Below are positions 1,157 through 26,946 of a stretch of DNA of 31,902 bases, in pieces. The stretch comes from a virus (lineage: Duplodnaviria; Heunggongvirae; Uroviricota; Caudoviricetes): IMG/VR virus record IMGVR_UViG_2925939204_000002. One strand, written 5' to 3'. Positions within the stretch are counted from its first letter, which is position 1; every line of letters starts with the position of its first letter. The translations under genes and the position numbers were made by a program. The notes below the pieces were generated by a model, which ran no database searches, was not told the origin of the DNA, and worked only from the letters and a program-made list of their open reading frames with translations.

Positions 1157-1540
1157 CTATTGATCAGGGCCGCACTTCTTCGTATATTCGGCCATGTTTA
1201 CCTGTCCTGGGTCTGAATACAGTTGCTTGTTAAATACAGAGTAAGTTACCCCTTTTGAGAAGAACCCCTTCGACTTCATCGACAATTCCATTTCAAAAGG
1301 TGCAAAACCAGCATACGCACCAAACGCATTTTTGGCGTTTACCTGCCCGCAGACGTAACCGACAACAGCACCATCAGCAGCTTCGTCTTTCTGAACAAAA
1401 CGTACATACCTGAATTTCGCGCTATCAGGATCGCGCATACTTGAAGCAACTTCTTTCTGCCCCAACTCAACCGCTTTATCAGCACCGGGCTTACATCCAA
1501 CAAGGCTAAACAGCGCAAGTACCATGATTAACTTTTTCAT
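1157..1540 (-). CDS. Putative lipoprotein of unknown function, 127 aa (possible prophage moron)
   Basis: Internal ATG at 1540-1538 of ORF 1157..1783 gives MKKLIMVLALFSLVGC: signal peptide plus lipobox LVGC; purine-rich tract upstream; codon usage more AT-rich than neighbouring phage genes. The longer 208-aa form overlaps ogr and is rejected. Confidence 0.6.
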   Translation of the reverse strand: MKKLIMVLALFSLVGCKPGADKAVELGQKEVASSMRDPDSAKFRYVRFVQKDEAADGAVVGYVCGQVNAKNAFGAYAGFAPFEMELSMKSKGFFSKGVTYSVFNKQLYSDPGQVNMAEYTKKCGPDQ

Positions 1541-1603
1541 ATCCCTACCTTTTAAGCACCACTGTGAAAGTTGAAAAATAATATCAGGGGTAACAGGTAT
1601 AAG

Positions 1604-1632
1604 AAACCCGCCATGTAGGCGGGTTATTTTTA
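1604..1632. terminator. Hairpin terminator at the 3' end of ogr, possibly bidirectional
   Basis: aacccgcc-atgtag-ggcgggtt stem-loop (1604-1625) followed by atttttac on plus strand and by a weaker U tract on minus strand; overlaps the ogr stop codon. Confidence 0.45.
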
Positions 1633-1872
1633 CAGTGCCAGCGATAGCTGATCTTCGCCGTGGTGACTTCGTGGAAAAGCTTCTTGTGGCACCATCGCGC
1701 CGGGCGCTGGCTGGGTCTGGTTTAATGAACCGTCTATTTCCGTCATGCTGGTGAAACAGTACCCGCATAACATGTTTTGACACTGGTGATAGCTGCGCCG
1801 TACAAGCAAACTCAGCTCAACGCTGGTTCTGGTTTTTGCTATAGCACGGCAGCGAGGACAGCGCATTGCCAT
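1630..1872 (-). CDS. ogr: Ogr/Delta-family zinc-finger late transcription activator
   Basis: 80-aa product with CPRC ... HQCQNMLC Cys4 arrangement as in P2 Ogr; strong RBS aaggagg 6 nt upstream of ATG at 1872; sits downstream of D as in P2. Confidence 0.8.
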   Translation of the reverse strand: MAMRCPRCRAIAKTRTSVELSLLVRRSYHQCQNMLCGYCFTSMTEIDGSLNQTQPAPGAMVPQEAFPRSHHGEDQLSLAL

Positions 1873-1920
1873 ACGCGGGCCTCCTTTCAGGACTGGTTAA
1901 TATCAACGCAAGTATAACGC

Positions 1921-3039
1921 TTAAGACGTTGAATCGTCACTCTCCGCTGTCCAGTCGTCGATTTTTACTTCCAGTTCCAGCGACGTGGTAAACCCTCCCC
2001 CGCCAACATCGTGAACGCACCGTGTTATCGTCCAGCTTCCACTGTCGATCGTGGACTTAAACCCATAAACACTGGCTGGCTGTTCCGGGTACAAATCCGC
2101 GCGCCCACGCGCCAGGGTGATGCTGAACGTAGCCGCCCCGCGCTGCAACTCCCGCCACTTAGCCGCTGCGGCACGCTTTGCCGCCTTTTCCGTCTTGAAG
2201 GTTTTACGGATAACAAAAACGTTGCCTTCGGCCCCGGCCAGATAATCCCCTTCTTTTTTGCTTGATGCGGGTTCTTTCTTTTTGGCCTGGCTGGTTCGTC
2301 GCCTGCGGGTGGTTTTCTTCACGGTAGTGGATGGTTTCTTGCCAAAGTTGAGATCAAGCCAGTATGCAGTTACGCCCGTGTACGCGTCGCGGTCAGCTAC
2401 GTTAAACCGATGTTTATCACCGCTTGACCGGACTATCTCGATCACCGGCAGCGGCTTGCCGCTCTGCGTTACTCCCTTGCCCGGCGTGATAAACAGAAGC
2501 ATACCGTTTTTAATGGTTGCCACCGCGCCCAGCATTTCGGCCATGCGCGTTAAGAAGCTGATATCTGATTCACTCGTCTGATCGGCGTGATCTATCTCAA
2601 TCTTCGCCAGTTCTTCGCTGACGCCCGCACGCAGATCGTAACGGCTGGCAATGCTGGCAACCACATCCCCCACGGTAATATCGTGCCAGCTATATTCCCT
2701 CTTCACGTTAAAGGTATCGCGGAAATCTGCGCTTCTGGCACTGATCGTTAGCTGGTCAGGCGGGCCAGAGTGTCCGATCTCGTCAACCGTATACACGCCC
2801 TTAAAAACCAATGGATCATTATCCCAGCCCAGCGCCACCGATATCTTTGCGCCGCGTGATGGTAAGGCTACCTGCCCGTCTGCATCATCCAGAGTCAGAT
2901 CCAGCGTGTCCGCTTCAAAGCCCCGGTTATCTGTCAGGGAAAGGGAGATCAGCCGGTTATCCAGCGCCGTAAGCTGCTTACCTTCAATCTCAATACTGAA
3001 CGCCGGGCGCGGCGAATATCGGTTTTCTGTCGTGTCCAT
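1921..3039 (-). CDS. Phage late control / tail protein D (P2 gpD family)
   Basis: 372-aa product, N-terminus MDTTENRYSPRPAFSIEIEGKQLTALDNRL typical of gpD; position next to ogr. Confidence 0.85.
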   Translation of the reverse strand: MDTTENRYSPRPAFSIEIEGKQLTALDNRLISLSLTDNRGFEADTLDLTLDDADGQVALPSRGAKISVALGWDNDPLVFKGVYTVDEIGHSGPPDQLTISARSADFRDTFNVKREYSWHDITVGDVVASIASRYDLRAGVSEELAKIEIDHADQTSESDISFLTRMAEMLGAVATIKNGMLLFITPGKGVTQSGKPLPVIEIVRSSGDKHRFNVADRDAYTGVTAYWLDLNFGKKPSTTVKKTTRRRRTSQAKKKEPASSKKEGDYLAGAEGNVFVIRKTFKTEKAAKRAAAAKWRELQRGAATFSITLARGRADLYPEQPASVYGFKSTIDSGSWTITRCVHDVGGGGFTTSLELEVKIDDWTAESDDSTS

Positions 3040-3106
3040 ATCAACCCCTTCATCATGATGGGGTACATCGTCGCCACGCGCGCGCGCATGAACAACGCCC
3101 CGTCAT

Positions 3107-3124
3107 TGTTGCAGGTTGCTGACA
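3107..3124. promoter_or_regulatory. Candidate Ogr-binding dyad (TGT-N12-ACA) of a late promoter between D and FI
   Basis: tgt tgcaggttgctg aca is an exact TGT-N12-ACA; centre about 3115, roughly 55 bp from the expected FI start site and symmetrically placed relative to D. Confidence 0.45.
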
Positions 3125-3196
3125 ACCCTTATCCATCGCATCGGCCCGCCATTGCCGCAATGATATTCGCAGTCATTAAACTGGCGAGGCAAATAC

Positions 3197-4390
3197 ATGG
3201 CCACTAACTACCATCACGGTGTAACCGTCACGGAAACCACCGACCTTAGCACGATGATCACCGACATTGATTCGGCGGTGATCGGCGTTGTCTGCACCGC
3301 TGATGATGCGGACGAAACAGCGTTCCCGCTGGATACCCCTGTACTGATTACCCGCGTGGCTAACATGCTGGGCAAGGCAGGTAAAACCGGCACCCTGTTT
3401 ACCACCCTGAAAGCGATTTCAGACCAGACCAGCCCGCAAACCATTGTGATCCGCGTTGCTGATGCTGCAAATATCGAACCGCCAGAAGGCGGCACCGCAC
3501 AGACCCAGGATCAACTGGTTATTGGCGGCACCGATGCAAACGGGCGCTTTACCGGCATGTACGCGCTGCTGTCTGCCGAAATGCGCGTAGGTGTGCGCCC
3601 GCGTGTACTGGCTGTTCCAGGGCTTGATACGGAAGCGGTAGCCGCACAACTCGGCGTCATTGCCGAAAAGCTGCGCGCGTTTGCTTACGTGGCAGCGAAC
3701 GGTTGCAACACAATCGCCGAAGTGAAGGAATACCGCGAGCAATTCTCCCAGCGTGAAATGATGGTTATCTGGCCTAATTTCATCTGCTACGACACCAACG
3801 CCGGGGCTAATGCCACCGTGCCCGTGGGTGCCCATGCTGTTGGGATGCGAGCCAAAATCGACGCAACGCAGGGCTGGCATAAAACCATTTCCAACGTGCC
3901 CGTTAATAACGTGCTGGGGATGGATCGGGATATCTATTTCACGTTGCAGGGCACCGATACCGACGCCGACGAACTGAACGCAGCAGGCGTTACCACGCTG
4001 ATCAAGCAGGACGGCTACCGCATCTGGGGATCGCGTACCTGCGACGCGGAAACGTATATCTTCGAAAGCTATACCCGAACCGCGCAGATAGTTGCGGATA
4101 CCGTCGCCGAAGCCCATTTCGCCTATGTTGATAAACCGCTTACCCCGTCGCTGGTAAAGGACATTGTGGACGGCATCAATAAGAAGCTGACCTCATACGT
4201 GACGGCTGGCAAGCTGCTGGGCGCCCGCTGCTGGTATGACCCGGAACCGAATACCTCGGAAACCCTGCGCAATGGTCAACTGACCATTAAGTACAACTAC
4301 ACCCCTGTTCCACCGCTGGAAAATCTCAGCCTGGTACAGGAGTTCACCGACGAATATTTCGCTACGTTTTCCAGCGCAGTGAATAACTAA
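3197..4390 (+). CDS. Contractile tail sheath protein (P2 gpFI family)
   Basis: 397-aa product, size and N-terminus MATNYHHGVTVTETTDLS consistent with gpFI; followed by tube gene. Confidence 0.9.
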   Translation: MATNYHHGVTVTETTDLSTMITDIDSAVIGVVCTADDADETAFPLDTPVLITRVANMLGKAGKTGTLFTTLKAISDQTSPQTIVIRVADAANIEPPEGGTAQTQDQLVIGGTDANGRFTGMYALLSAEMRVGVRPRVLAVPGLDTEAVAAQLGVIAEKLRAFAYVAANGCNTIAEVKEYREQFSQREMMVIWPNFICYDTNAGANATVPVGAHAVGMRAKIDATQGWHKTISNVPVNNVLGMDRDIYFTLQGTDTDADELNAAGVTTLIKQDGYRIWGSRTCDAETYIFESYTRTAQIVADTVAEAHFAYVDKPLTPSLVKDIVDGINKKLTSYVTAGKLLGARCWYDPEPNTSETLRNGQLTIKYNYTPVPPLENLSLVQEFTDEYFATFSSAVNN

Positions 4391-4402
4391 CCGGGGGCGC
4401 TT

Positions 4403-4918
4403 ATGGCACTGCCTAAGAAACTCAAATATTTCAATATGTTCTTTGACGGGGATAACTACTTCGGCATGGTGCCGGAAATCACCCCCGCCAAACTCACCAA
4501 AAAAACCGAAGACTACCAGGCGGGTGGTATGCCAGGTTCGGTTGCGGTGGATCTTGGCTTCGACGCTGGCGCCCTGGATATGGATATCACGCTTGGCGGT
4601 CTGGATGCCGGATTGCTGAAAAAATGGGGCGTTACCACTGCGGACGGGATGCAAACACGTTTTGCTGGCTCCTATCAGGACGACGCAACCGGCGACGCTG
4701 TACCGTGCGAAATCCAGACGCGTGGCCGCTTCACTGAACTGGATCCCGGTTCGGCAAAAGTCGGGGATGACACTTCGCATAAGTACACCCTGAAAAACAC
4801 CTATTACAAGCTGACCATCAACGGCGAAGAGATTATCGAAGTTGATGTGCTCAACATGATCTACAAAGTTGCCGGTGTGGATGTGCTGGAAAAACACCGC
4901 GCTAACATCGGCCTATAA
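4403..4918 (+). CDS. Tail tube protein (P2 gpFII family)
   Basis: 171-aa product MALPKKLKYFNMFFDGDNYFG, size and position match gpFII. Confidence 0.9.
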   Translation: MALPKKLKYFNMFFDGDNYFGMVPEITPAKLTKKTEDYQAGGMPGSVAVDLGFDAGALDMDITLGGLDAGLLKKWGVTTADGMQTRFAGSYQDDATGDAVPCEIQTRGRFTELDPGSAKVGDDTSHKYTLKNTYYKLTINGEEIIEVDVLNMIYKVAGVDVLEKHRANIGL

Positions 4919-4932
4919 GGAAACCCGGCACC

Positions 4933-5268
4933 ATGAGCAAAACCAAAGAAAACACCGTTATTCTTACCGCCCCTATTACGCGCGGTAAGACCAAAATCAC
5001 CGAAGTGGCGATCACTTCCATGCTTAAACAGGCTGGATCACTGCGCGGCTTAAAAGCCTATGACGTGCTGACTTCCAACTATGACGCGCTGGTTATTCTG
5101 CTGCCCCGCGTTACCGCTCCGGCACTAACCGCCGATGAGATTGCCCGTATGGATACCTGGGATTTTTGCCAGCTAGCCAACGCGGTGGTTGATTTTTTGC
5201 AACCCTCTTCGGATCTGACCGCGACGGATACGGGCAACGAATCATCCGATGCCCCTGCGAACGCATAG
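4933..5268 (+). CDS. Tail assembly chaperone gpE (in-frame product)
   Basis: 111-aa ORF directly upstream of the tape measure gene; contains a slippery heptamer. Confidence 0.75.
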   Translation: MSKTKENTVILTAPITRGKTKITEVAITSMLKQAGSLRGLKAYDVLTSNYDALVILLPRVTAPALTADEIARMDTWDFCQLANAVVDFLQPSSDLTATDTGNESSDAPANA

Positions 5269-5393
5269 AAGACCTGATGGCAGATATCGCCGTCATATTC
5301 CACTGGCGGCCGGTAGAGATGGACGCCATGACGGTACAGGAAATACTGTTATGGCGTGATCAGGCGGCTGCGCGCAGTGGTGGAGATCACTAA
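4933..5393 (+). CDS. Tail assembly chaperone gpE+E' made by programmed -1 frameshift
   Basis: The -1 frame after the slippery site stays open to TAA at 5391-5393, immediately before the T start; expected from the conserved E/E' (lambda G/GT-like) arrangement. Confidence 0.6.
5193..5199 (+). promoter_or_regulatory. Slippery heptamer TTTTTTG for the gpE/E' -1 ribosomal frameshift
   Basis: T TTT TTG in the E reading frame at 5193-5199; the -1 frame is open from here to 5393. Confidence 0.55.
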
Positions 5394-8321
5394 ATGGCAG
5401 ACCGCAATTTAAATATCAGGGTGGCATTCAGCGCCCTGAATAATATGTCCCGCCCTGTCAACGCGGCGCGCCAGAGTGCCGCCGCGTTGGCGTCTCAAAT
5501 CAACCAGACTAAAACCAGCATTAAAGGGCTTGAGCGTCAGGCAACCAGCTTTGACCGCCTCACCGCAGCCAATAAAAAAACCACCGAACAACTGGCCCAG
5601 GCGAAAGAACAGGCCCGGCAAATGGCGGCGGCTTATGGCCCGTTACGCCAGCGCAGCGCCGAACAAGTTGCCGCCCTCAATCAGCAACGTGCAGCCATTC
5701 GCCAGTTAACCCAGCAGCAGAAAGGCGAGCAGACGCAGCTTAACCAGTTGCGGGCCAGCTTCTACAGCGAAGGCATTGCGATCAGCAGCGCCAGCCGGGC
5801 GACGGAACAGATCAACCAGCGCACCGCGCAATACAACCGCCAGCTTGCTGAACAGCAACGACGGCTTGACGCTGTTAACCAGGCGCAGGCCCGTTACAGC
5901 CGCGCCAAAGAAACCGGCGAAAAGATGATGAGCGGGGGAATGAAAACCGCCGCAGTAGGGGCGGCAACACTCGTACCTGTCGCCGCTGCGGTGAAATCCT
6001 ACAGCAGCCTCGAAGACGCGATGAAGGGCGTAGCCAAACAGGTAAATGGCTTACGTGACGACAGCGGCAACCGCACCCCGCAGTATGAAGAAATGCAGCG
6101 GGCGATCATGGATGCCAGCGAAAAGCTGCCAATGGCTAACGGTGCTGTTGACTATGCCGCCCTGGTCGAAGGCGGCGCGCGTATGGGCGTCGCAAACAGC
6201 GATGATCCCTGGCAAAAGCAAAAAGCCGATCTGCTGTCTTTTGCCAGCATGGCGGCAAAAGCTTCGGTAGCCTTTGAACTGCCCGCCGATCAGCTTTCTG
6301 AAAGCCTGGGGAAAATTGCCGGGCTGTATAAAATCCCCACCCAGAATATTGAACAGTTAGGCGACGCCATAAACTACCTGGACGATAACGCGAAGTCGAA
6401 AGGCTCCGATATTATCGACGTACTCCAGCGCGTTGGTGGGCTTGCCAGCCAACTGGATTACAAGCAAGCCGCCGCGCTAGGTTCCACCTTTCTGACGCTC
6501 GGCACCCCTGCCGAAGTTGCCGCCAGCGCCACCAATGCAATGGTGCGCGAACTCTCAATCGCTACGGTTCAGGGCAAAAACTTTATGCAGGGTCTGGACG
6601 CCCTCGGCCTCAGCGCCGAAAAAGTTCAGAAGAGCATGTCAGTGGACGCGATGGGCACAATCATTTCAGTGCTGGAAGCGTCCAAAAAACTGGCCCCGGA
6701 TCAGCAGGTAGCCAACCTTACCCAGATTTTTGGCAAAGAGTTCGGCGATGATGCGCAGAAACTTGCCAACAACCTGCCCGAACTACGCCGCCAGATAGAA
6801 CTGACGCAGGGCGCAGCCGCTAAAGGTTCCATGAATAGGGAGTCTGATATCAATAAAGCTTCCCTTTCTGCTCAATGGCAACTGACAAAAACCGGCGCGG
6901 TTAACGCATTCAGTTCAGCAGGTGAAACCCTTCGCGATCCGCTGATGGATATCATGCTTACCGTCAGTAAGGTGGTTGGCAGCGTCCGCCGCTGGGTGGA
7001 GGCAAACCCAGCGCTGGTTGGTTCAATCATGAAAGTCACCGCAGCCATAGGCGCTTTGCTGGTTGTCATGGGTGGCCTGATGCTGTCCATCGGCGCAGTA
7101 CTTGGCCCAATGGCACTTGTTCGCCTCAGCTTCACCTCGCTGGCCGGGGAAGGAGGAATAGCGCGTCTGACTGGCGGAGTAATGCGCCTGGGTGGTGCGT
7201 TCCAGTGGCTTGCTGGCTCGCCTATGCAGGCATTGTTAAGCGCCGGTCGCATGGTATTCGGCCCGCTTATCACGCTACTGGCTGGCATTTCTGCGCCCGT
7301 CTGGGGGCTGATTGCTCTCTTTGCTGCGGTAGCAGTGGCCGTAATTAAATTCTGGCAACCGATTAAGGCATTTTTCAGCGGCTTCTTTACCGGTCTGATG
7401 GCTGGCCTTCAACCAATAACGCAGTCGTTTAACGCCGTATTCGCACCACTGGCCCCGATTTTTAACAGTATCGGCAACGCGATCAGCGGCGTCTGGGAAT
7501 GGTTTACCAAACTACTGGAGCCGATCCAGTTTTCCAGTGAAGCGCTGGCATCCTGCACCAGTGCAGGGGAAACCTTCGGTAAGGTGGTTGGGGCCACAAT
7601 CAGCGCGCTGACGCTTCCCATTCAGGCCGTAGCCAAAGGGCTGGGCTGGATTCTGGAAAAGCTGGGCGCCATTCCCGACGCAGCGAAAGCAGCGCAGCAG
7701 GTTGCGCAGCAAATGACGCCGGAAGCGGTAAACAATCTGGCAGACCGGGTTAACGCCTTTTCCGGTGACGTGCAGGCAGTCGCGAAGGAAAGCAAAAAAG
7801 CCGAAGAGAAAAAGAAAACCGATGAGCAGAAGAAACAGGACAACCTGATTAACTCGCTCAAAGGCCCGGCCAACATCGTGCCGAAGATGAGCAACAGCCT
7901 GGACAAGATCGCCACCAATACCACGGAGAAGAAAGACGGCCCCGGCGAAATTGTCTTCAAGAATAAGCAGCCCTATATCCCGATCCGTGGCGGATATTCG
8001 GAACCGCTTAAGCAGGCGCAGCGCCAGCTACCATCCCTTACCGATTGGGTGACGCAGCAGGCCGGATCGCTGATCGCTTCCGTTACGCCTTGGCAGGTTG
8101 AGAAGCCCGCCGCACGGATGCCTGTTTCGGCGTCTCCGTCTGCGGCTTCCGTCGCTGCGCTGATGCCTGCTCCGGGTGGCGATGTATATAACCTTAACTT
8201 CGACTTTAGCGGCCAGAAACTGGATGAAGAAACCATTATCAGGCGCGTGCGCGAAGAACTTGCGTTAGCGAAGCAACAGGCCGACCGGCGCAAGCGCTCC
8301 CAACTGACCGATCACGTCTAA
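5394..8321 (+). CDS. Tail tape measure protein (P2 gpT family)
   Basis: 975-aa product with coiled-coil N-terminal third, hydrophobic Gly/Ala-rich central segments and charged C-terminus; follows E/E'. Confidence 0.9.
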   Translation: MADRNLNIRVAFSALNNMSRPVNAARQSAAALASQINQTKTSIKGLERQATSFDRLTAANKKTTEQLAQAKEQARQMAAAYGPLRQRSAEQVAALNQQRAAIRQLTQQQKGEQTQLNQLRASFYSEGIAISSASRATEQINQRTAQYNRQLAEQQRRLDAVNQAQARYSRAKETGEKMMSGGMKTAAVGAATLVPVAAAVKSYSSLEDAMKGVAKQVNGLRDDSGNRTPQYEEMQRAIMDASEKLPMANGAVDYAALVEGGARMGVANSDDPWQKQKADLLSFASMAAKASVAFELPADQLSESLGKIAGLYKIPTQNIEQLGDAINYLDDNAKSKGSDIIDVLQRVGGLASQLDYKQAAALGSTFLTLGTPAEVAASATNAMVRELSIATVQGKNFMQGLDALGLSAEKVQKSMSVDAMGTIISVLEASKKLAPDQQVANLTQIFGKEFGDDAQKLANNLPELRRQIELTQGAAAKGSMNRESDINKASLSAQWQLTKTGAVNAFSSAGETLRDPLMDIMLTVSKVVGSVRRWVEANPALVGSIMKVTAAIGALLVVMGGLMLSIGAVLGPMALVRLSFTSLAGEGGIARLTGGVMRLGGAFQWLAGSPMQALLSAGRMVFGPLITLLAGISAPVWGLIALFAAVAVAVIKFWQPIKAFFSGFFTGLMAGLQPITQSFNAVFAPLAPIFNSIGNAISGVWEWFTKLLEPIQFSSEALASCTSAGETFGKVVGATISALTLPIQAVAKGLGWILEKLGAIPDAAKAAQQVAQQMTPEAVNNLADRVNAFSGDVQAVAKESKKAEEKKKTDEQKKQDNLINSLKGPANIVPKMSNSLDKIATNTTEKKDGPGEIVFKNKQPYIPIRGGYSEPLKQAQRQLPSLTDWVTQQAGSLIASVTPWQVEKPAARMPVSASPSAASVAALMPAPGGDVYNLNFDFSGQKLDEETIIRRVREELALAKQQADRRKRSQLTDHV

Positions 8322-8330
8322 GGCAATATC

Positions 8331-8780
8331 ATGATGATGATTCTGGGGATGTTCCCCTTTTCACTGCAAACCACACCTTACCAGAGTGCGAATAAAACCA
8401 ACTCCTGGCGGCACGTCAAAAACGATCGCGTGGGGAAATCCCCGCGCTATCAGTTCATCGGCGCAGATGAAGAACCGTTCGTACTCAGCGGCACGCTGTA
8501 CCCCGAAATAAGCGGCGGTGATGTGTCGCTTGTCATGCTGGAAACTATGGCTTTTTCCGGGCGCCCGTGGCCCCTGATAGAAGGCACGGGCAGGATCTAC
8601 GGCATGTATGTAATTGAGCAGATCACGCAAAACCGGACGGAGTTTTTTAAGGACGGGAAGGCAAAGAAAATTGATTTCACGCTCAACCTGAAACGGGTAA
8701 GCGAGGACATACGGGAAAAGCTGGCTGAAACCACTACCGACGATCTCTTCTCTCTGGTGAAAACCAACCTTTCGATATAA
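8331..8780 (+). CDS. Tail protein U (P2 gpU family)
   Basis: 149-aa product immediately after T; N-terminus MMMILGMFPF. Confidence 0.8.
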   Translation: MMMILGMFPFSLQTTPYQSANKTNSWRHVKNDRVGKSPRYQFIGADEEPFVLSGTLYPEISGGDVSLVMLETMAFSGRPWPLIEGTGRIYGMYVIEQITQNRTEFFKDGKAKKIDFTLNLKRVSEDIREKLAETTTDDLFSLVKTNLSI

Positions 8781-8784
8781 GAAA

Positions 8785-8811
8785 AGCGGGCCATTGCCCG
8801 CTTCGTCTTCC
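8785..8811 (+). terminator. Candidate terminator of the tail operon
   Basis: agcgggc-catt-gcccgct hairpin starting 5 nt after the U stop, followed by a U/C-rich tract. Confidence 0.45.
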
Positions 8812-8832
8812 GTAATACACAACCATAACTGA

Positions 8833-8889
8833 CCGTGCTACAGCACCGTTAAAAGTGACCGTACTCGATACACACGGCCAGCACGGTTA
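8833..8889. repeat. Copy A of a ~57-bp structured intergenic repeat
   Basis: 42 of 48 core positions identical to 15461-15508, plus cgtgct upstream; contains 12-bp palindrome gtgct-ac-agcac and conserved tcgatacacacggccagcacggtta; abuts the invertase stop. Confidence 0.5.
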
Positions 8890-9468
8890 TAACCGGCCAT
8901 GCGTGCCGGAATTCTTATCTCTGGTCGCTGGGAATTTTTTGTAAAGCGTAGATATCCCAACATCATAAATTATGGCAACCCTCCGGCGCGATTCCCCTGC
9001 CGCTATTAACCTACCCGCCTGCGCCCATTGTTCTGGTGTTAGTTTTGGACGTCTACCGCCGATCCTTCCCTGCGCGCGAGCGGCCACCAGTCCTGCACGC
9101 GTACGCTCGACAATCAATTCTCTCTCCATCTCTGCCAGTGCTCCCATAACATGAAAAAAGAAACGCCCCATTGGTGTTGAGGTATCAATACTGTCCGTCA
9201 GGCTGCGGAAGTTCACGGAACGTTGCTTTAGTTCCTCCACCAGAATGACCAAGTTCCGCATACTCCGCCCAAGACGATCCAGCTTCCAGACAACAAGCGT
9301 ATCTTCTGGAGAAAGGCGCTTTAGTAATTTTTTAAGCCCTGGCCTTTCCGCTGTTCTCCCGCTCATTTTATCTTCAAAAATTAGCTCACATCCTGACCGC
9401 TCAAGCGCATCACGTTGCAAAGCCGTGTTCTGGTCATTTGTTGATACGCGCACATATCCAATAAGCAT
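8887..9468 (-). CDS. Site-specific DNA invertase, Hin/Gin/Pin/Cin-family serine recombinase
   Basis: 193-aa product MLIGYVRVSTNDQNT...VVWKLDRLGRSMRNL...SPMGRFFFHVMGALAEMERELI, near-identical in motif content to Gin/Pin; catalytic Ser in the YVRVST context; C-terminal HTH. Confidence 0.9.
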   Translation of the reverse strand: MLIGYVRVSTNDQNTALQRDALERSGCELIFEDKMSGRTAERPGLKKLLKRLSPEDTLVVWKLDRLGRSMRNLVILVEELKQRSVNFRSLTDSIDTSTPMGRFFFHVMGALAEMERELIVERTRAGLVAARAQGRIGGRRPKLTPEQWAQAGRLIAAGESRRRVAIIYDVGISTLYKKFPATRDKNSGTHGRL

Positions 9469-9522
9469 GGTTTTTCATTCCTTTAAAACGATAAATCATG
9501 CCATTCGGCTAATAATTATGCA

Positions 9523-9548
9523 TTTTCAAAAACGTTCGTTTCGAACTG
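9523..9548. promoter_or_regulatory. Candidate invertase crossover site (hix/gix-like) immediately upstream of the invertase gene
   Basis: ttttcaaaaacg tt cgtttcgaactg: A-rich half-sites aaacg/cgttt around a 2-bp centre, resembling the GAAAACC-NN-GGTTTT core of hix/gix; positioned as gixR/hixR are relative to their recombinase genes. Confidence 0.3.
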
Positions 9549-9641
9549 GGGGGGGAGTGACGGGCTGTGAAGGGCGATGTTGCTCTGATGGAAAATTCCG
9601 GGTCTTGCTGATGCGTGTCGATACAGCAAAACCCGTATGGC

Positions 9642-9875
9642 TTACTCCTCTGGATAATGAGTAGGCGCATTATACTGACTGACGTACTCGTTAAGCTCCG
9701 GCGGGTATGTCACTTTTGCTGTATCTCGCTCTACGTTGAATGTATCCGCTCCCCAGATAACACACTCCCTCAAAAATGCCTCCACCTCTGGCGAGACTTC
9801 AACCGCATCATCAGGTCGCTCTTGTTCAGAAACATAAAAACCAACGGTCGTTGGGCTGAAATAGATATTCTCCAT
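9642..9875 (-). CDS. Tail fibre assembly (Tfa) chaperone-like protein, short form, probably truncated
   Basis: 77-aa product MENIYFSPTTVGFYVSEQERPDDAVEVSPEVEAFL resembles the conserved N-terminal domain of Tfa proteins, but the usual C-terminal domain is absent; lies between tail fibre H and the invertase. Confidence 0.5.
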   Translation of the reverse strand: MENIYFSPTTVGFYVSEQERPDDAVEVSPEVEAFLRECVIWGADTFNVERDTAKVTYPPELNEYVSQYNAPTHYPEE

Positions 9876-9877
9876 AT

Positions 9878-11134
9878 TTAGTATCCTATTGCTTCAAAAT
9901 GCAGTGTCGGTGTTTCGCCGAGATTGGGTGTCGTATACGCCACAGTGAATCGCGTTCTTGATACGTCAGTGCCAGAATCAGTATCGCGATGCGTTGCCAG
10001 TGATTTTCCGGCCATTGTTGCCTGGGTCGAATAGCTGTAACTCGCTAGTGTTGCCAGCGTTGCTATTTGTGCATTTGGGAATTGTCTGGGGAAATTAACC
10101 CTGTAGTAATGGGTGTAGTACGTCACCCCACCGAGCACCTGCGCGCTGAAGTTACCAACTGGTGTCAGTGTCACAGTGCCAGCCTGTCGAATCATACCAT
10201 TTGGGAGAATATCCCAGGCAGTTTGTCCGTTTCGCGACATACCAAATGCGGACATGTCCGGGAGTTGATTATTACCGGTTCCCACGTCCCTTTTTGCCGC
10301 TTCTCCCAATTGAAGGTTTTGTAGAAAAACAGAAACGTTTTCTATGTCTGAACCATTTGCCGATTTATCCATCTTTCCAGCGAGTGAATTTGTTACGGTG
10401 GTAGCAAAGTTAGGATCATTACCCAAAGCCGCAGCAAGTTCATTCAGCGTATCCAGCGCTTCAGGCGAAGAGCCAACCAAAGCAGCAATAGCAGCCTGAA
10501 CGAAAGCTGTATTTGCAATTTGAGTAGAACTATCTTTGCCTTCCGCCGTTGGCGCAGTCGGCCTGCCAGTAAGAGCGGGACTTTCTTTTGGTGCGTATTG
10601 TTTATGCGGATCAGCCGCAGCTACATGCGCTGCCATTTTCTGATCAACATAGCTTTTCACCTGGATGATCTGATCATCAACATACTGTCGGGTTGCCAGA
10701 ACTACCGAAGGGTCAATTTTCAGCGTTACGGCAGCGGTGCTGCTGACAATCAGGATCATGCGTACAACCTGTACGCGCCCGCTTCCCTCCTGTAACTGCG
10801 GCTTATACGTTTCCGCACAGTTGGCTACGGCAATCATATCGCCGTCTTTATCGAATAAACCGATTTCACGGATCCACCACCCGCCCTCGTCTTCAGGTAT
10901 CACCTGCTCGGCAATAATCTGGTTGGCGTTATTCGGGTCAATGCTCAGACTATTAAGCGGCTTGCGGCGCAGCTCATGAACCAGCGCCGTTTGTGCCGGG
11001 TTCGGCGTCGGCAACACGCCGTTACCATCGCCTACAGCCATCTGGGTGATTTCAACCTGCGCACCCAATGCCGTGGCATTTGCCAGTTTCGCCGCGCCCA
11101 CATTGGTTAGCACGGCATAATATTTAGTCGCCAC
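9878..11134 (-). CDS. Tail fibre protein (P2 gpH family), about 418 aa from GTG start
   Basis: N-terminal region ATKYYAVLTNVGAAKLANATALGAQVEITQMAVGDGNG...SGRVQVVRMILIVSS matches the conserved gpH N-terminal domain; GTG at 11134-11132 overlaps the gpI stop. Confidence 0.85.
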   Translation of the reverse strand: MATKYYAVLTNVGAAKLANATALGAQVEITQMAVGDGNGVLPTPNPAQTALVHELRRKPLNSLSIDPNNANQIIAEQVIPEDEGGWWIREIGLFDKDGDMIAVANCAETYKPQLQEGSGRVQVVRMILIVSSTAAVTLKIDPSVVLATRQYVDDQIIQVKSYVDQKMAAHVAAADPHKQYAPKESPALTGRPTAPTAEGKDSSTQIANTAFVQAAIAALVGSSPEALDTLNELAAALGNDPNFATTVTNSLAGKMDKSANGSDIENVSVFLQNLQLGEAAKRDVGTGNNQLPDMSAFGMSRNGQTAWDILPNGMIRQAGTVTLTPVGNFSAQVLGGVTYYTHYYRVNFPRQFPNAQIATLATLASYSYSTQATMAGKSLATHRDTDSGTDVSRTRFTVAYTTPNLGETPTLHFEAIGY

Positions 11135-11738
11135 TTGCGATCTCCACGGTGTCAATTAAATGGATTGCCGCCCCGGTGTAATCATCACCGCCCACGGCTA
11201 TGGTTTCAGGAAAATACGGGTACACGGTTAGCGTATCGCCGGAATAACTGCCCGCGCCGATATACAGATCGCCGGTTGTTTGCAGGTGAAGAGACATTCC
11301 CAGCATATGACGGCTGCACGGCTTCACATCGGCGATCAGGCGTTCAAGTTCCTGATAGGTTTCTTCACTAATGCCCTGGTCTTCCACGCCAATATCCAGC
11401 GTGAAGGTGCCCGGTGCGGTGTCGATGTTCCACCACTCGTTAACCCGGATGAAGAAGCCGAACGGCTCCACAACCCGGCGCATGGCGCCCGTTGTACCCT
11501 TGTACTTATGCAGGTAAAACGCATCGGCCACTGCCTTTCGTTTTGTGTTTATCGGCCAGGCCTCATCCCAGCGATCAACGGAGAAGGCCCACGCCAGATA
11601 GGGCAACAGATCAGCCCGACACGTCCACGGGTTCCACAACTGGCGCAGCGGCACGGGCACTTCACCCAACGACGCACAGACGCGCGCGGCGACGCGCTCC
11701 ATTCGGCTGGCGCTGGGTGGTAACAGGTCATTACTCAT
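11124..11738 (-). CDS. Baseplate/tail protein I (P2 gpI family)
   Basis: MSNDLLPPSASRMERVAARV N-terminus; ATG at 11738 overlaps the J stop (ATGAGTAA arrangement). Confidence 0.85.
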   Translation of the reverse strand: MSNDLLPPSASRMERVAARVCASLGEVPVPLRQLWNPWTCRADLLPYLAWAFSVDRWDEAWPINTKRKAVADAFYLHKYKGTTGAMRRVVEPFGFFIRVNEWWNIDTAPGTFTLDIGVEDQGISEETYQELERLIADVKPCSRHMLGMSLHLQTTGDLYIGAGSYSGDTLTVYPYFPETIAVGGDDYTGAAIHLIDTVEIASGD

Positions 11739-12642
11739 CGTAACCACCCACCGTTATGGTGTATTCGGTGCAGTGCGATGCCTGGTAGTCACTCAGCACA
11801 ATATCCGCAACAGGCCGCGCCAGTTCCACGCGCTGGACGCCTTCGACGTGCAGGGCGGCGTAGATAGCTGAAAGACGGATATCGCGCCCTAAGCGATTCT
11901 GCGCGGCAATATACGCCTGTAACTGCTGTTCCGATGCCTGCCGGACGGGTTCAGCTTCCGGCCCCGGATAGATGTAAAGCGTTGCATCAATCTGATACGG
12001 CACGATCTCCGCAGACTGCACCGTTACCCTGTCGGCCACCGGGCGCACTTCTTCATCGTTCAGGGCAGCAGCGACCACGGAAAGCAGATCATCGCTGGCC
12101 GTTCCGTCACCTTCGCGCGACAGCACCGAAATGGTGACGCAGGCAGGCGTAGGACTCACCGCCGAAATATCAGCTACGCGCCCGTCTGCTGAACGCCCCC
12201 AAAATTCATACGCCGCAGTTGGCCCGGCCACGCTCAGACCTTCAAAAGCCTGCTGGGTACGCGTGCGTAAATCTGGGTCTGACTCCATCACGGCTTCAAT
12301 TGGCGGTGTAACGCTGTCGTCTTCTTCCTGAATGGTCAGACGTTCAACGTTGAAATTGACCGCCAGATTATCCAGATCGCTATCCGTGGAATAAGCCAGC
12401 ATCACCGCGCGGGCTGCTTCATTCACCCGCTGGCGCAACAGCAATTCGCGATAGCAATTCTCTTCCAGCAGCATGGTGATCGGCTCCGATTCAAGCTCAA
12501 GCGTGCGGGCGATCTCTTCCTGCTCGTCTTCCGGGTACATCGCAATAAATGCCGCCTTGCGCTGCGCGAAAAGCGTTTCGAAGTCCAGCGGTTCAACCAC
12601 CACGGGCGGCGGTAGCTGCGATAAATCGATCGTGCCGCTCAT
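11731..12642 (-). CDS. Baseplate assembly protein J (P2 gpJ family)
   Basis: 303-aa product, size and position between W and I. Confidence 0.9.
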   Translation of the reverse strand: MSGTIDLSQLPPPVVVEPLDFETLFAQRKAAFIAMYPEDEQEEIARTLELESEPITMLLEENCYRELLLRQRVNEAARAVMLAYSTDSDLDNLAVNFNVERLTIQEEDDSVTPPIEAVMESDPDLRTRTQQAFEGLSVAGPTAAYEFWGRSADGRVADISAVSPTPACVTISVLSREGDGTASDDLLSVVAAALNDEEVRPVADRVTVQSAEIVPYQIDATLYIYPGPEAEPVRQASEQQLQAYIAAQNRLGRDIRLSAIYAALHVEGVQRVELARPVADIVLSDYQASHCTEYTITVGGYDE

Positions 12643-13627: not shown

Positions 13628-13765
13628 AGTGCTGACTGTTTCCCGTGGTGCCGGTTACGCTGTCCGGCGTCGTTTCCACCCGGTAGCAGGCTTTACGACC
13701 GTTTCGGCTTTTGGGTTATGCAGTCAGTATCAGGAGTCGCGCGCGCGCAAACAACGCGGCGCCCT

Positions 13766-13783
13766 TGTGGCGGGTTGGTGACA
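13766..13783. promoter_or_regulatory. Candidate Ogr-binding dyad of the V-operon late promoter
   Basis: tgt ggcgggttggtg aca is an exact TGT-N12-ACA located between the S stop (13785) and the V start (13627). Confidence 0.45.
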
Positions 13784-15414: not shown

Positions 15415-15451
15415 ATCTAAACCTCTCGCCAGCTCGCACTGTCATTACCGT

Positions 15452-15509
15452 ACGTGCTGGAGCACTGTCAAAAATGACCGCGCTCGATACGCACGGCCAG
15501 CACGGTTAG
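15452..15509. repeat. Copy B of the ~57-bp structured intergenic repeat
   Basis: Matches 8833-8889 at about 85 percent; contains palindrome gtgct-gg-agcac; lies between the endolysin stop and the spanin start. Confidence 0.5.
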
Positions 15510-15515
15510 ACATGA

Positions 15516-20103: not shown

Positions 20104-20121
20104 TGTCGGACTCAGGCGACA
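20104..20121. promoter_or_regulatory. Candidate Ogr-binding dyad in the divergent O/P late promoter region
   Basis: tgt cggactcaggcg aca is an exact TGT-N12-ACA; spacing fits the O promoter; the P promoter site was not identified. Confidence 0.4.
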
Positions 20122-20167
20122 ACCAGCGGCGATATTGTTGCGCGCGCGAGCGCGATAGCCTGTTGCC

Positions 20168-23038: not shown

Positions 23039-23140
23039 CCTCAACCCACCACGGCGAACCGAAAACGACGCAGCAGCGAGGCGCAGCGGCGCGAAAATCG
23101 GCGCAGATAATACCGACCCTATCCCACCCCTCAGCGCGCG

Positions 23141-23159
23141 CTCATTCCCCCGCCTCGCC
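23141..23159. other. Candidate cos site (cohesive-end sequence)
   Basis: ctcattcccccgcctcgcc is the reverse complement of GGCGAGGCGGGGGAATGAG, closely resembling the P2 cohesive end as I recall it (GGCGAGGCGGGGAAAGCAC); located just beyond Q as in P2. Confidence 0.5.
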
Positions 23160-23413: not shown

Positions 23414-24526
23414 ATGGACGTTTATGTTTATGCTGATGAATCTGGACATTCAGGTCGCAATATTTTTGACGAGAGATCACCGACATACTTTCAGGGGGCG
23501 ATAATCTCTCATGGTGACGTTGATCCTATCATTAACGAAGTTGTCCAGCGGCACTGCAAGGCTTTAGGCGTTCCGCGTCTTCACTCAAATGAACACCAAG
23601 AGCATGTTGTTTCAGTAATTTGCTCAGATCTTCTTGATGCACTTGAAAATACCTCTTGGGAATTTTCACTCTGCGTTATTCACAAACCTTATCTCGCACC
23701 AACCAAGTTTGTTGATCTGTTTTTTGATAGTGCTGATAATCCTGGCGTCCCGGTCTTGTGGTACAACACCGAATTATTTAGACATGCTATGTGCTTAGGT
23801 ATGGCAGATATCTTGTCCGATGAAGATAACAAGGCTTTTTGGGATGGTTTCCTGAGCGACGACATGCCAAAAATGCTTCAAGTTGCGGAAATTGCACTTT
23901 CAAGAATTGACCGCATACTAGATCCGCGAATGAAAGAAGTTATGACTGATGGTTTAACTTACGCGATCAGCCACCCTGACGAATTCACCTTAATTTGTAC
24001 CCATGGGAAAAGCGCCTACAAAGGCCAAACGCCTAATATGGTTGCTTTTTCTAGTCTGATGGGGGCTACACATTCTTTCTGTAAAAAGCATTCCTCTTCC
24101 GTAAAAGAATTGATCCATGACAGAAGCGACGAGTTTCGCGGGACGATGAGAGAATATCACCGCATTTTTCATAAAATCGATCATGTAGAGGACGATTTGG
24201 GGGGCCCAATTCTTTTTGAGGAGGCTCAATTCGATTTAGGTAAATTCGATCTTCGAAGTTCAGAAAGTCATCCAGCGCTGCAAGCTGTAGATGTTTTTTT
24301 GTGGATGCTGCAAAGAGACTTGATTACTGATGAAGGAAAAAAAGCTCTAGAACGACTAAAAAAACATCTCAATGATTTCGTGATATCTCCTTCCATGTCT
24401 CAGTTGATTGTAAGGGCACGTACATATCAACTTAACAGTAAACCTCTTTCATCTGAACAGTTCAAAGCGGGAAGAAAATTTTCTGCTCAGTTAGAAGCTA
24501 AACGACAGAAGCGTTTGAGAAGATAA
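23414..24526 (+). CDS. Hypothetical protein, 370 aa, AT-rich moron in the cos-proximal hotspot (P2 old/tin position); candidate defence gene
   Basis: ATG at 23414 with gaagga RBS; AT-rich codon usage; N-terminal YVYADESGHSG motif (reminiscent of DUF3800-type proteins, unverified); no P-loop seen; flanked by terminators. Confidence 0.7.
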   Translation: MDVYVYADESGHSGRNIFDERSPTYFQGAIISHGDVDPIINEVVQRHCKALGVPRLHSNEHQEHVVSVICSDLLDALENTSWEFSLCVIHKPYLAPTKFVDLFFDSADNPGVPVLWYNTELFRHAMCLGMADILSDEDNKAFWDGFLSDDMPKMLQVAEIALSRIDRILDPRMKEVMTDGLTYAISHPDEFTLICTHGKSAYKGQTPNMVAFSSLMGATHSFCKKHSSSVKELIHDRSDEFRGTMREYHRIFHKIDHVEDDLGGPILFEEAQFDLGKFDLRSSESHPALQAVDVFLWMLQRDLITDEGKKALERLKKHLNDFVISPSMSQLIVRARTYQLNSKPLSSEQFKAGRKFSAQLEAKRQKRLRR

Positions 24527-24542
24527 TTAAAACATACCCATA

Positions 24543-24570
24543 AATGGCGCCTCATGGCGCCATTGCTTTT
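24543..24570. terminator. Bidirectional hairpin terminator between the convergent 370-aa gene and gene A
   Basis: aatggcgcc-tcat-ggcgccatt perfect 9-bp stem followed by gctttt. Confidence 0.5.
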
Positions 24571-24576
24571 GGCTAA

Positions 24577-26946
24577 TTATATCTCATTTAATAAATGGCC
24601 CTTAAACGCTGCCTTCATCCTGTTCACAAGGTCGCTTGTCTTTTTCTTCGCTGCCATCACCTGTGACGGCAGCTTATCCAGCCCGGATGCGGCGCGGTTG
24701 CGCGATACCAACCGCCCGTCCTGCACGGTCATAACAAGATCACCGCACGCCACTGACGCACCGGCCATCATCGATCTGACCATTCCGGCGCTTGCATCAA
24801 TCCCACGTAGCGCCAGCAGTTCACTGATCTGCTGCTCTTTGACTGATAGCCCTGCTTCCTCTTCCCATTCCGGTGGCCGCGTTTTCCGCTTGGCGCGTAC
24901 ATCGTCACTTAATCGCTGCGCCAGTTCCCGCTTTTCTTGCCGTGAAAGAGCATCAAAATTCACCGTCTCGCCCACTTCGTGATCGGCATGTTCAAGACCG
25001 TCAGCACCTGTTGCGGGATCCCGCGTACAGTTATTGACAGAACTCCGAGGGGCGGCGCTGCCGCCTGAAAAACCAACGTCAACGGCCACACCGTCAGCGC
25101 TCTGGCGCTTCGGCACGATTTTGTATTTAGTGGTGCGGGTGAAGATCAAAGAGTCATTGCCCGTAATCGGGCAATAGATACCGGTGATTCGCTGGACGTT
25201 ATCGCCGTAGGCGTTGCCGTTTTCAGTGGTTTCATAATTCAGACGGATGCGCAGCTTATCGCGCTCAACCAACGGGCCACCCTGGGCTAATACGTAGTTA
25301 TCCCATTCGCCACCGTTAGCGGCCTGCCGGGCGGTTTCCAGTTCAGGGTGTAACACCAGTTCGCGATCGCCCAGGCGGCGAAGTTCGCGATATACCGTGA
25401 CCGGTGCACCGCCGATCTGCTGAAACTGACGAATAGCCCAGCGCGATGCCCACGCGCTAACGCGGAGTGACATTTCTTTCAGGTCTTCCCCGGTTTCGTC
25501 GTCCTTCTCACCATCCAGCGCGAAGCCGTCGATATTCTTCGAAATGTATTTCGCTATGTAGCCGGTTGCGCTGCCGTGGGCATCATCGATCGGCACAACC
25601 TGAAAGCGGTTTTCCTGCGCTCCCGGTTCGTTGCCGTCTTCTTTCAGGGCATATTTACGGAAGATTTCGCGCGCCTGCTCGACGCATTCCGGGCGCATAA
25701 AAAGAAGTAAATGCCAGTGTGGCGTTGCATCGTGGTGCGGTTCGACCACGCGAAAACCAAAGACGCGGATCCCTTTTCTCTTCCACGCTGCGCGGGTTCT
25801 CGCCCAGACTTTGCAAAGATATTGCTGCGTCTCGCGCGGCGATGCGCCACAGTATTTATTATTGCGGCGCCCGTTATGCTGCATGGAGTGGTAACGGGAA
25901 GGTGCTGTCAGCGTGTAGAAGTCACCGGCCAGCCCTTCCAGCTTCGCCAGATCTTCAAATCCGCGCATTCTCGTCATGAGTTCGCGGCGACGGTTGGCCG
26001 GATTGGCAACACTACCGGCGACTTTATCGATCAGTGAAATGCGTTCGCCCGTGTCCTGGTCTTCCAGTTCCATAGCCTTAAGGTATTCACGGTTAGCCTT
26101 TTTTTGGGCCAACCATTCCGTAAGGCACGGGGCGCTACTGTATGGGAAAGATTTTTTCTGGACGTATCCCGCAGCGATCATCAAATGCTCACGCCACCGG
26201 GCATGGATACGGCGCAGGCGGTTTAACCACCACTGCGGTGACTCAAGGCGAAGAACCGCGCGTAACGCGTCCTCCGCTTCCAGTTCTTCATTGCAATACG
26301 CCGTCCAGCCGGGGATCGGAGTTTTCAGATGCACCGCCAGCGACGCAATACGGCCATAGCCAGAAAGCGCCGCGAACTCAGGATCTCCGGTGCGTGCCAA
26401 TTGGTGATCGGACTCGCGTATAAACTCGCTCGTAAAGATATCGGCAAGCGTATAAGCCAGTCTTTTTAACTCTTTCTTCCCTGCCCAGAGCATACGGAAC
26501 AGCTGATCGCGGATTGGCAGCAGAATGCCGGGCATCACAGTGTCAGGCTGGTAAACACTGTTCACACTATCAATTCGCGTTAATACGTGGCGCTCAAAGG
26601 TATTAACCAGCCAGTGATCTGCCGCTTTGCGGTCTTTCGCGTCCAGTGCATCCAGCTTCGCGGCAAAGTGGCGGCGGATATACTGCGGAAGTGAAGCCAG
26701 ACGGCGACGCAGCAGCTTGCTGCGCTCCGGCTTTTCGTCTTCCGCTACCAGTTCACTGAACGCAATATGCTTACGCGTGCCGTCCGGCGTGAGATAGTCG
26801 AAACCATCCAGCCCCGGCGCTACATCAACGCCAATAGGCTGGTATGGTTTGTTTCCCCCATAAGCGTAAGGGATAGCATTGTCAGTGCTACCCGGATACG
26901 GTGGAGGTGGAGAAGGGGCGCGACGGCCACGGGTTTCCGTGGTCAT
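24577..26946 (-). CDS. Rolling-circle replication initiator A (P2 gpA family, HUH endonuclease)
   Basis: 789-aa product with PHWHLLLF (HUH motif) and TGYIAKYISK (catalytic Tyr region). Confidence 0.9.
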   Translation of the reverse strand: MTTETRGRRAPSPPPPYPGSTDNAIPYAYGGNKPYQPIGVDVAPGLDGFDYLTPDGTRKHIAFSELVAEDEKPERSKLLRRRLASLPQYIRRHFAAKLDALDAKDRKAADHWLVNTFERHVLTRIDSVNSVYQPDTVMPGILLPIRDQLFRMLWAGKKELKRLAYTLADIFTSEFIRESDHQLARTGDPEFAALSGYGRIASLAVHLKTPIPGWTAYCNEELEAEDALRAVLRLESPQWWLNRLRRIHARWREHLMIAAGYVQKKSFPYSSAPCLTEWLAQKKANREYLKAMELEDQDTGERISLIDKVAGSVANPANRRRELMTRMRGFEDLAKLEGLAGDFYTLTAPSRYHSMQHNGRRNNKYCGASPRETQQYLCKVWARTRAAWKRKGIRVFGFRVVEPHHDATPHWHLLLFMRPECVEQAREIFRKYALKEDGNEPGAQENRFQVVPIDDAHGSATGYIAKYISKNIDGFALDGEKDDETGEDLKEMSLRVSAWASRWAIRQFQQIGGAPVTVYRELRRLGDRELVLHPELETARQAANGGEWDNYVLAQGGPLVERDKLRIRLNYETTENGNAYGDNVQRITGIYCPITGNDSLIFTRTTKYKIVPKRQSADGVAVDVGFSGGSAAPRSSVNNCTRDPATGADGLEHADHEVGETVNFDALSRQEKRELAQRLSDDVRAKRKTRPPEWEEEAGLSVKEQQISELLALRGIDASAGMVRSMMAGASVACGDLVMTVQDGRLVSRNRAASGLDKLPSQVMAAKKKTSDLVNRMKAAFKGHLLNEI

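Follow-up and report, generated by a model that had tools for sequence, protein, structure and literature searches.

How does a P2-like prophage come to carry its tail sheath, tail tube and tape measure genes on one strand and D, the gene that closes the same operon in P2, on the other? The locus that raises this question lies in the virus record IMGVR_UViG_2925939204_000002 (Duplodnaviria; Heunggongvirae; Uroviricota; Caudoviricetes), a stretch of 31,902 nucleotides that is called the window below and that represents a complete P2-like prophage. In the window, the block from the F promoter (PF) and gene FI to gene U is turned round in comparison with P2, and D and FI are read away from each other on either side of a 157-bp spacer. 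It might be asked whether such a block has been turned over recently, whether it can still be turned over, and how D is expressed once it has been set apart from its operon. The reading proposed here, to which we give a probability of about 85%, is that the block was flipped once in the ancestor of a clade and has been inherited stably ever since, that the neighbouring invertase took no part, and that D is expressed from its own promoter on an activator site shared with the F operon.

The gene calls combine the layout of open reading frames (ORFs), PHROG matches and the Prokaryotic Genome Annotation Pipeline (PGAP) annotation of the chromosome of Escherichia coli AR_0119, and all three agree. 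The prophage is 100% identical to the chromosomal prophages of AR_0119 and AR_0118, where it is inserted beside fieF-pfkA. On the plus strand lie FI, the tail sheath gene (3197-4390; PHROG 23 tail sheath, E = 2e-123), FII, the tail tube gene (4403-4918; PHROG 55; PGAP 'phage major tail tube protein'), and E, which encodes a tail assembly chaperone (4933-5268; PHROG 103; PGAP 'phage tail protein'). They are followed on the same strand by E', the frameshift extension of E (~5319-5393; PGAP 'GpE family phage tail protein' at the equivalent position), by the tape measure gene T (5394-8321; PHROG 28, E = 8e-154) and by the tail protein gene U, with which the inverted block ends (8331-8780; PHROG 76, E = 2e-64). 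On the minus strand are found the tail and late control gene D (1921-3039; PHROG 52 tail protein, E = 6e-157; PGAP 'phage late control D family protein') and ogr, which encodes a zinc-finger late activator (1630-1872; PHROG 603 transcriptional regulator; PGAP 'ogr/Delta-like zinc finger family protein'). A serine DNA invertase gene (8887-9468; PHROG 125 DNA invertase, E = 1e-91; Pfam Resolvase and HTH_7) and the tail fibre gene H (9878-11155) lie on the minus strand beyond U, as do I, J, W, V, S, R and the genes for lysis and for the head. The plus strand also holds P and Q.

According to the RefSeq record of P2, the genes FI, FII, E, E', T, U and D all read in one direction and belong to one operon annotated from pF, which is followed by ogr. 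This canonical structure, in which FI to U and D form one co-directional unit, was not found in the window, where D is on the minus strand and FI to U are on the plus strand. The two phages share the gene set, the internal order from FI to U, a distance of about 83 nt between the PF site and the FI ATG, and the position of ogr right after D. They differ in that D of P2 is last in the operon, directly after U and co-directional with it, whereas in the window everything from PF to U has been flipped. The P2-like contractile tail module is complete, and homologues of FI, FII, E/E', T, U and D are recognized by PHROG, by PGAP and by tblastn against P2, Fels-2 and other loci. The divergent D is a difference of layout, not of family membership. 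A preliminary description made from the letters of this DNA had placed FI to U (3197-8780) on the plus strand and D, ogr, the tail-fibre and baseplate genes from H to V and the head and lysis genes on the minus strand, and had interpreted this as an inversion relative to the P2 operon that leaves D apart from its canonical partners. The strands are confirmed by the gene calls, and the inversion is borne out by the P2 record.

The same arrangement is present in functional phages. SEN4 and SEN5 (Senquatrovirus; NC_028701 and NC_029015) are plaque-forming, were isolated as phages and are myoviruses by electron microscopy (PMC5261728). Their genomes align with positions 1500-12000 of the window on a single strand and in colinear order, with 94.2% identity across 84% of that segment, and their D|FI junction is 96.4% identical to that of the window. 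They have the order and orientation of ogr and D, of FI to U and of the tail fibre genes in common with the window, together with the same dyad, terminator and 72-nt element that are described below. Unlike the window, they are without an intact invertase gene and have another tail-fibre, macro-domain and assembly module. When the D|FI junction was used as a query, the same divergent junction was found in Enterobacter phage phiT5282H (Novemvirus), in Escherichia phage Chuche and in a fragment of Serratia phage KSP20.

The spread of the two layouts was surveyed in 80 genomic loci that encode relatives of D, with one genome per species, onto which eleven window proteins were mapped by tblastn. 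In 55 of these loci (L007-L061; D identity 59-99%), the order was J I H (with the invertase gene, where there is one) / U T E FII FI / D ogr, which is the layout of the window. They span approximately 28 genera of Enterobacterales, including Salmonella, Citrobacter, Hafnia, Enterobacter, Pectobacterium, Photorhabdus and Xenorhabdus, as well as Yersinia, Providencia, Morganella, Serratia, Erwinia, Pantoea and Edwardsiella. The other 25 loci (L062-L086; D identity 54-58%) displayed the P2 layout, and P2, Fels-2, RE2010 and Pseudomonas phage phiCTX have this canonical layout. The prophage in the window is thus an E. coli member of a SEN4/5-like branch of Peduoviridae that includes phiT5282H, Chuche, KSP20 and many prophages of Enterobacterales.

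Within E. coli, the layout does not vary. A prophage of this type is present in 32 records out of 5,426 complete E. coli genomes, and all 32 are colinear with the window; the seeming exception, AR_0128, is only split by the start of its circular record. The opposite orientation of FI-U was not found in these 32 records, in SEN4/5 or in two of the surveyed loci (L007 and L008). One relative is a 32,330-bp circle (L089; NZ_JBQJRQ010000002.1) from E. coli 2020N21-246-1, which is 96.4% identical to the window and has the same layout. Although it is annotated as 'plasmid unnamed3', the circle is evidently an excised phage genome. The strain has the phage in its chromosome as well, and the presence of a chromosomal and a circular copy in one strain suggests spontaneous excision or replication. 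The FI-U block is probably not phase-variable.

The gene that most readily suggests a flip is the invertase at the U end, so its own substrate has to be considered. The invertase belongs to the same serine family as those of Fels-2, Mu (Gin) and P1 (Cin), and tblastn gives 79% identity to the Fels-2 gene region. As in those systems, it is located at the tail-fibre end, with a crossover site upstream of the start codon. This invertase-proximal site, TTCGAAACGAACGTTTTTGAAAA (9523-9545, minus strand), is unique within the window and can be aligned with those that precede the invertase genes of Fels-2 and of three other loci (L064, L033 and L085). A degenerate second site, CCCAATTGAAGGTTTT, lies inside H at 10304-10320 and corresponds to the site TCCCAAACCAAGGTTTT of the L089 circle (26885-26901). 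In that circle, an identical invertase protein (WP_021567694.1) flanks a complete invertible tail-fibre segment, whose limits are AAAACGTTGGTTTGGGA at 25042-25058 and the TCCCAAACCAAGGTTTT site just mentioned. The window differs from the Fels-2, Gin and Cin types in having one good site and one degenerate site, in the remodelling of its invertible segment and in the lack of a demonstrable link between the invertase and FI-U. Homology between the window and L089 breaks at 9541/9542, exactly at the centre of the invertase-proximal site, and restarts at 10245. Because the break coincides with the centre of the crossover site, it is read as an invertase-type scar on the tail-fibre side, and the tail-fibre switch of the window looks remodelled or frozen. 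The C-terminus of H and an ORF of 77 amino acids (9642-9875) resemble those of E. coli phages phi456 and phi458.

The idea that FI-U was recently inverted, or is currently invertible, through the action of this invertase on sites at the junctions draws on the position of the gene beside U and on a weak gix-like core, AAACCAACCTTT, which has one mismatch and lies at 8761-8772 within the end of U. Such cores occur eight times against 4.8 expected, which is the level of chance, and no partner site is present in 3040-3196. When the gix and hix cores (AAACCNNGGTTT and AAACSNNSGTTT) and the phage's own site were searched for with mismatches allowed, none was found at 3040-3196 or at 8781-8886. A search of positions 1500-12000 for inverted repeats at the two junctions yielded nothing beyond chance-level matches, and FI-U is not flanked by the pair of inverted crossover sites of ~26 bp that would define an invertible segment. 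The real crossover site, at 9523-9545, is on the far side of the invertase gene. In the surveyed loci, invertase genes are sporadic in both architectures and always at the tail-fibre end, and most inverted loci are without the gene. Canonical Fels-2 has its invertase in the same position relative to the tail-fibre genes, followed by FI. The same orientation of FI-U is found in SEN4/5, L007 and L008, which have no invertase; about half of the 32 E. coli prophages carry the gene and about half do not, with an unchanged layout and not one variant of opposite orientation among them. Across the surveyed loci, SEN4/5, Fels-2 and the E. coli records, no correlation between the presence of the invertase and the arrangement of FI-U was found. 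In SEN5, approximately 95 nt of the 3' end of an invertase gene are retained (L001 ~10390-10480, aligned to window 8887-8980), which indicates that an ancestor with the inverted layout had an invertase and then lost the gene while the layout was kept. The invertase is the usual recombinase of a tail-fibre host-range switch and did not produce the inversion of FI-U, and a flip by its action must be considered extremely improbable. Still less credible is an error in the assembly of this genome alone, since the identical arrangement recurs in many independent complete genomes, in separately sequenced phage isolates and in IMG/VR contigs.

There remains the number of events. When neighbour-joining trees were built for D, FI, FII and U, all four separated 62 inverted from 28 canonical loci in a clean bipartition, with the window on the inverted side. 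That P2, Fels-2, RE2010 and phiCTX are canonical implies that the canonical order is probably ancestral and that the inversion took place once. One ancient inversion is the simplest reading of these sequences, and a single event is likely. Several independent origins, or frequent reversion, would be in keeping with the mosaicism of P2-like phages and with the tree of the baseplate gene J, in which no clean bipartition was obtained. This explanation appears improbable in view of the four trees that are clean and of a junction design (single dyad, spacings, GC block, terminator) that is common to the whole inverted clade. The 72-nt element, moreover, was found in genomes of the inverted type only, and in no more than some of those. 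The preliminary description had left a choice between a lineage-specific architecture and a 5.7-kb inversion, and both halves can be retained in part: the layout is a lineage trait and an inversion did occur, once and deep in the clade. What falls away is its more striking version, a recent or invertase-linked flip. The description had itself said that the arrangement would be an ordinary lineage trait if functional relatives shared the orientation and conserved junctions with no role for the invertase, and this is what was found.

Between the F operon and the V/tail-fibre operon, which converge there, lies a GC-rich hairpin terminator (8783-8804). It was recognized by a terminator scan and RNA folds, shows a good U-run when read from the minus strand, and has been kept in SEN5, L007 and L008. 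Because this terminator blocks read-through from the tail-fibre operon, D needs a promoter of its own. The divergent D|FI intergenic region of 157 bp (3040-3196), whose length and layout are conserved, is read here as a bidirectional late-promoter region. It contains a single dyad of the Ogr activator type, TGTTGCAGGTTGCTGACA (TGT-N12-ACA; 3107-3124), which is an exact match and one of three exact intergenic matches in the window; the others are upstream of V and between O and P. Measured from the centre of the dyad, the FI ATG is 82.5 nt away and the D ATG 75.5 nt. On the plus strand, a predicted -10-like hexamer of PF, AATGAT (3159-3164), is 34 nt from the edge of the dyad, with a predicted start at ~3171. 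On the minus strand, a predicted -10-like hexamer for D, GACGAT (3067-3072), is likewise 34 nt from the dyad edge, with a predicted start at ~3060, and an alternating GCGCGCGCGC block (3078-3087, minus strand) lies on the D side, about 19 nt from the dyad.

These features were compared in 50 distinct D|FI spacers of the inverted clade. The spacers are always short (~145-180 bp), and 43 of them contain a single central dyad whose second half is ACA or AGA. In these 43, the FI ATG is 79.5-92.5 nt away from the dyad centre (82-85 nt in most), and the D ATG is in most cases 66-81 nt away. A hexamer of the form nAnnnT is found exactly 34 nt from the dyad edge on the FI side in 49/50 spacers and on the D side in 44/50; at other spacings, it occurs in at most 7/50 on the D side and at most 9/50 overall. 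Between the PF dyad and the FI ATG there are 83 nt in P2 and 79-86 nt in canonical loci, the same as in the inverted clade, and this equality indicates that PF travelled with the block.

A known pair of divergent late promoters offers a model for such a design. In the P2 record, a single activator binding site serves both pO and pP, whose starts are 55.5 nt to either side of its centre. The P2 sequence has GAAACT and TAGCCT 34 nt from the dyad edges and 7 nt before the annotated starts. The window has a similar single dyad between its own divergent O and P (20104-20121), with a GC block and TAGCCT at N34 on the P side and AATGAT at N34 on the O side. The late promoter of V (PV), with its dyad at 13766-13783 on the minus strand, provides a further internal comparison and reads dyad-N17-GCGCGCGCGCG-N6-GATACT. 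One dyad between two divergent late units, with nAnnnT 34 nt from each edge, is therefore common to the O and P promoters (PO and PP) of P2, to O|P of the window and to its D|FI spacer. Unlike in P2, the predicted pair would serve D and FI, a combination that P2 does not have, and in the window a GCGCGCGCG block is present on one side.

The alternating GCGCGCGCG block deserves separate attention. It stands 17-19 nt past the dyad in the putative D promoter (P_D), in PV and in PP (3078-3087, 13739-13748 and 20140-20147); there is also a fourth copy without a dyad, at 23134-23141. The block is absent from PF, from PO and from the P2 promoters. The composite dyad-N14-24-GCGCGCG is found three times in the window (PP, PV and the D side of D|FI), and none of 300 random sequences reaches three. 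Among the related spacers, a GC block is present on the D side in 40/50 and on the FI side in 12/50. Degenerate versions of the block in relatives often retain the alternation of pyrimidine and purine. At the P promoter of the window, a mere 6 nt separate the predicted hexamer TAGCCT (20156-20161) from the ATG annotated for the terminase gene P (20168); this would leave the P mRNA with almost no leader, unless P begins at a codon further downstream.

Since the shared dyad and the hexamers at 34 nt match PP/PO of P2, and the GC block matches the window's own PV and PP, a bidirectional late promoter can be proposed. PF would have been carried along with the block, and the predicted Ogr-binding dyad would now be in the middle of the 157-bp spacer, facing D. 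P_D would use the PF dyad from its other side, in the manner of the divergent P and O promoters of P2, and ogr would be transcribed by read-through from D. The F operon and the V/tail-fibre operon would both end at the hairpin terminator between them. The phage itself encodes an activator of the Ogr zinc-finger family. Judged from these sequences, D most likely has its own late promoter, and we infer that P_D would be active, dependent on Ogr and started at ~3060. The preliminary description had pointed to the junctions as the place to look for recombination scars and for the expression of D. As regards D, this was well chosen, given the compact D|FI junction and its divergent promoter features; the only invertase-type scar, by contrast, is at the tail-fibre side.

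Several observations weigh against the proposal as a whole. In 7/50 spacers, no dyad within one mismatch is found at the expected place, and GACGAT is a weak -10 hexamer. P_D, its dependence on Ogr and the predicted starts are all derived from comparison. The trees are without bootstrap values and rest on the 80 loci whose D is most similar, so rare reversions or independent inversions may have occurred beyond this sample. There is also a sigma-70-like match on the minus strand of the spacer (3187-3160; TCGCCA-16-TATCAT), which could serve as an alternative promoter of D. Together with the weakness of the predicted P_D hexamer, this match gives some substance to the view that D is driven by an ordinary sigma-70 promoter, or by another signal in the spacer, instead of an Ogr-dependent promoter on the PF dyad. 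Sigma-70-like matches, however, are no commoner than in shuffled sequence (6 versus 6.3 expected), and both the fixed 34-nt spacing on the D side and the GC block known from PV and PP point to a late-promoter design. D is, besides, a structural tail protein that is required late in infection. An ordinary promoter for D is therefore held to be unlikely, and the shared late promoter is preferred.

The intergenic region beside U contains one more conserved feature. The preliminary description had reported a structured repeat between U and the invertase gene (8833-8889), and a conserved stretch is indeed present there, in the form of a non-coding element of ~72 nt (8822-8895, minus strand). It is not an invertase site. 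The element is found with or without the invertase, and its presence in SEN5, L007 and L008, which have no such gene, means that it is not tied to the invertase. A second copy (15447-15510, minus strand) lies 40 nt upstream of a spanin-like gene. Copies in phiT5282H and in prophages of Mixta, Erwinia, Kosakonia, Enterobacter and Izhakiella match the element at 86-93% identity, although the U proteins of these carriers are only ~50-54% identical to that of the window and the neighbouring proteins ~50-60%. A pattern scan of viral contigs detected it in 53 stretches and in two contexts only, namely between the tail-fibre module and the convergent U, and 40 nt upstream of the spanin-like gene. Its direction is always that of the late transcripts, and each genome has two direct copies. 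All carriers found (the window, L001, L004, L007, L008, L047-L055, L089 and L091-L143) are P2-like genomes of the inverted architecture.

The conserved core of the element consists of two direct TTTTTAAC-GTGCTG motifs and an invariant TATCGAG. The minus-strand RNA of 8822-8895 folds at -58 kcal/mol (z = -7.2). For the U-proximal copy, no Rfam match was found at either threshold, and RNAalifold on 16 and then on 46 sequences returned a weak consensus with no compensatory support. Because the consensus folding is without such support, the strong single-sequence fold is not upheld as a conserved structure. Copies of the element were also considered as the substrate of the inversion, and this candidate was rejected: the copies, at ~8.85 kb and 15.5 kb, are in direct orientation, and none is located at the D|FI junction. 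The element could be an undescribed cis-acting signal that is specific to the clade. The joint proposal, in which inversion led to the capture of one Ogr site for both PF and a new P_D built on the dyad-GCGCGCGCG-hexamer design of PV and PP, and in which the 72-nt element would be such a clade-specific signal, is a composite reading of sequence features and appears somewhat more probable than its negation.

Other parts of the prophage lie outside this argument. A cargo gene at 23414-24526 (plus strand), with a neighbour at 24554-24982 (plus strand), has a low GC content (~0.42) and encodes a DUF3800 protein. Its position, with the Q/cos end on one side and the replication gene A on the other, is that of old/tin in P2. 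No PADLOC match to a defence system was found for the cargo genes.

The inverted layout is already visible in deposited and annotated genomes. No published comment on it was found in the papers on SEN4/5, on Serratia PP4/KSP20 and on Xenorhabdus prophages or through general searches. As a lead on a rearranging prophage, the locus can for the most part be closed: the prophage has not been caught in the act, and its invertase is an ordinary tail-fibre switch. P2 can no longer be considered a universal template for the annotation of P2-like prophages, since D and FI diverge in a large clade that spans many genera. The comparison also yields a precise and testable prediction, that is, a bidirectional late promoter for D and FI on a shared dyad, and the highly conserved 72-nt non-coding element is a further point worth keeping. 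If the prediction is true, P_D/PF would be a natural example of the capture of a promoter by inversion beside a symmetric activator site.

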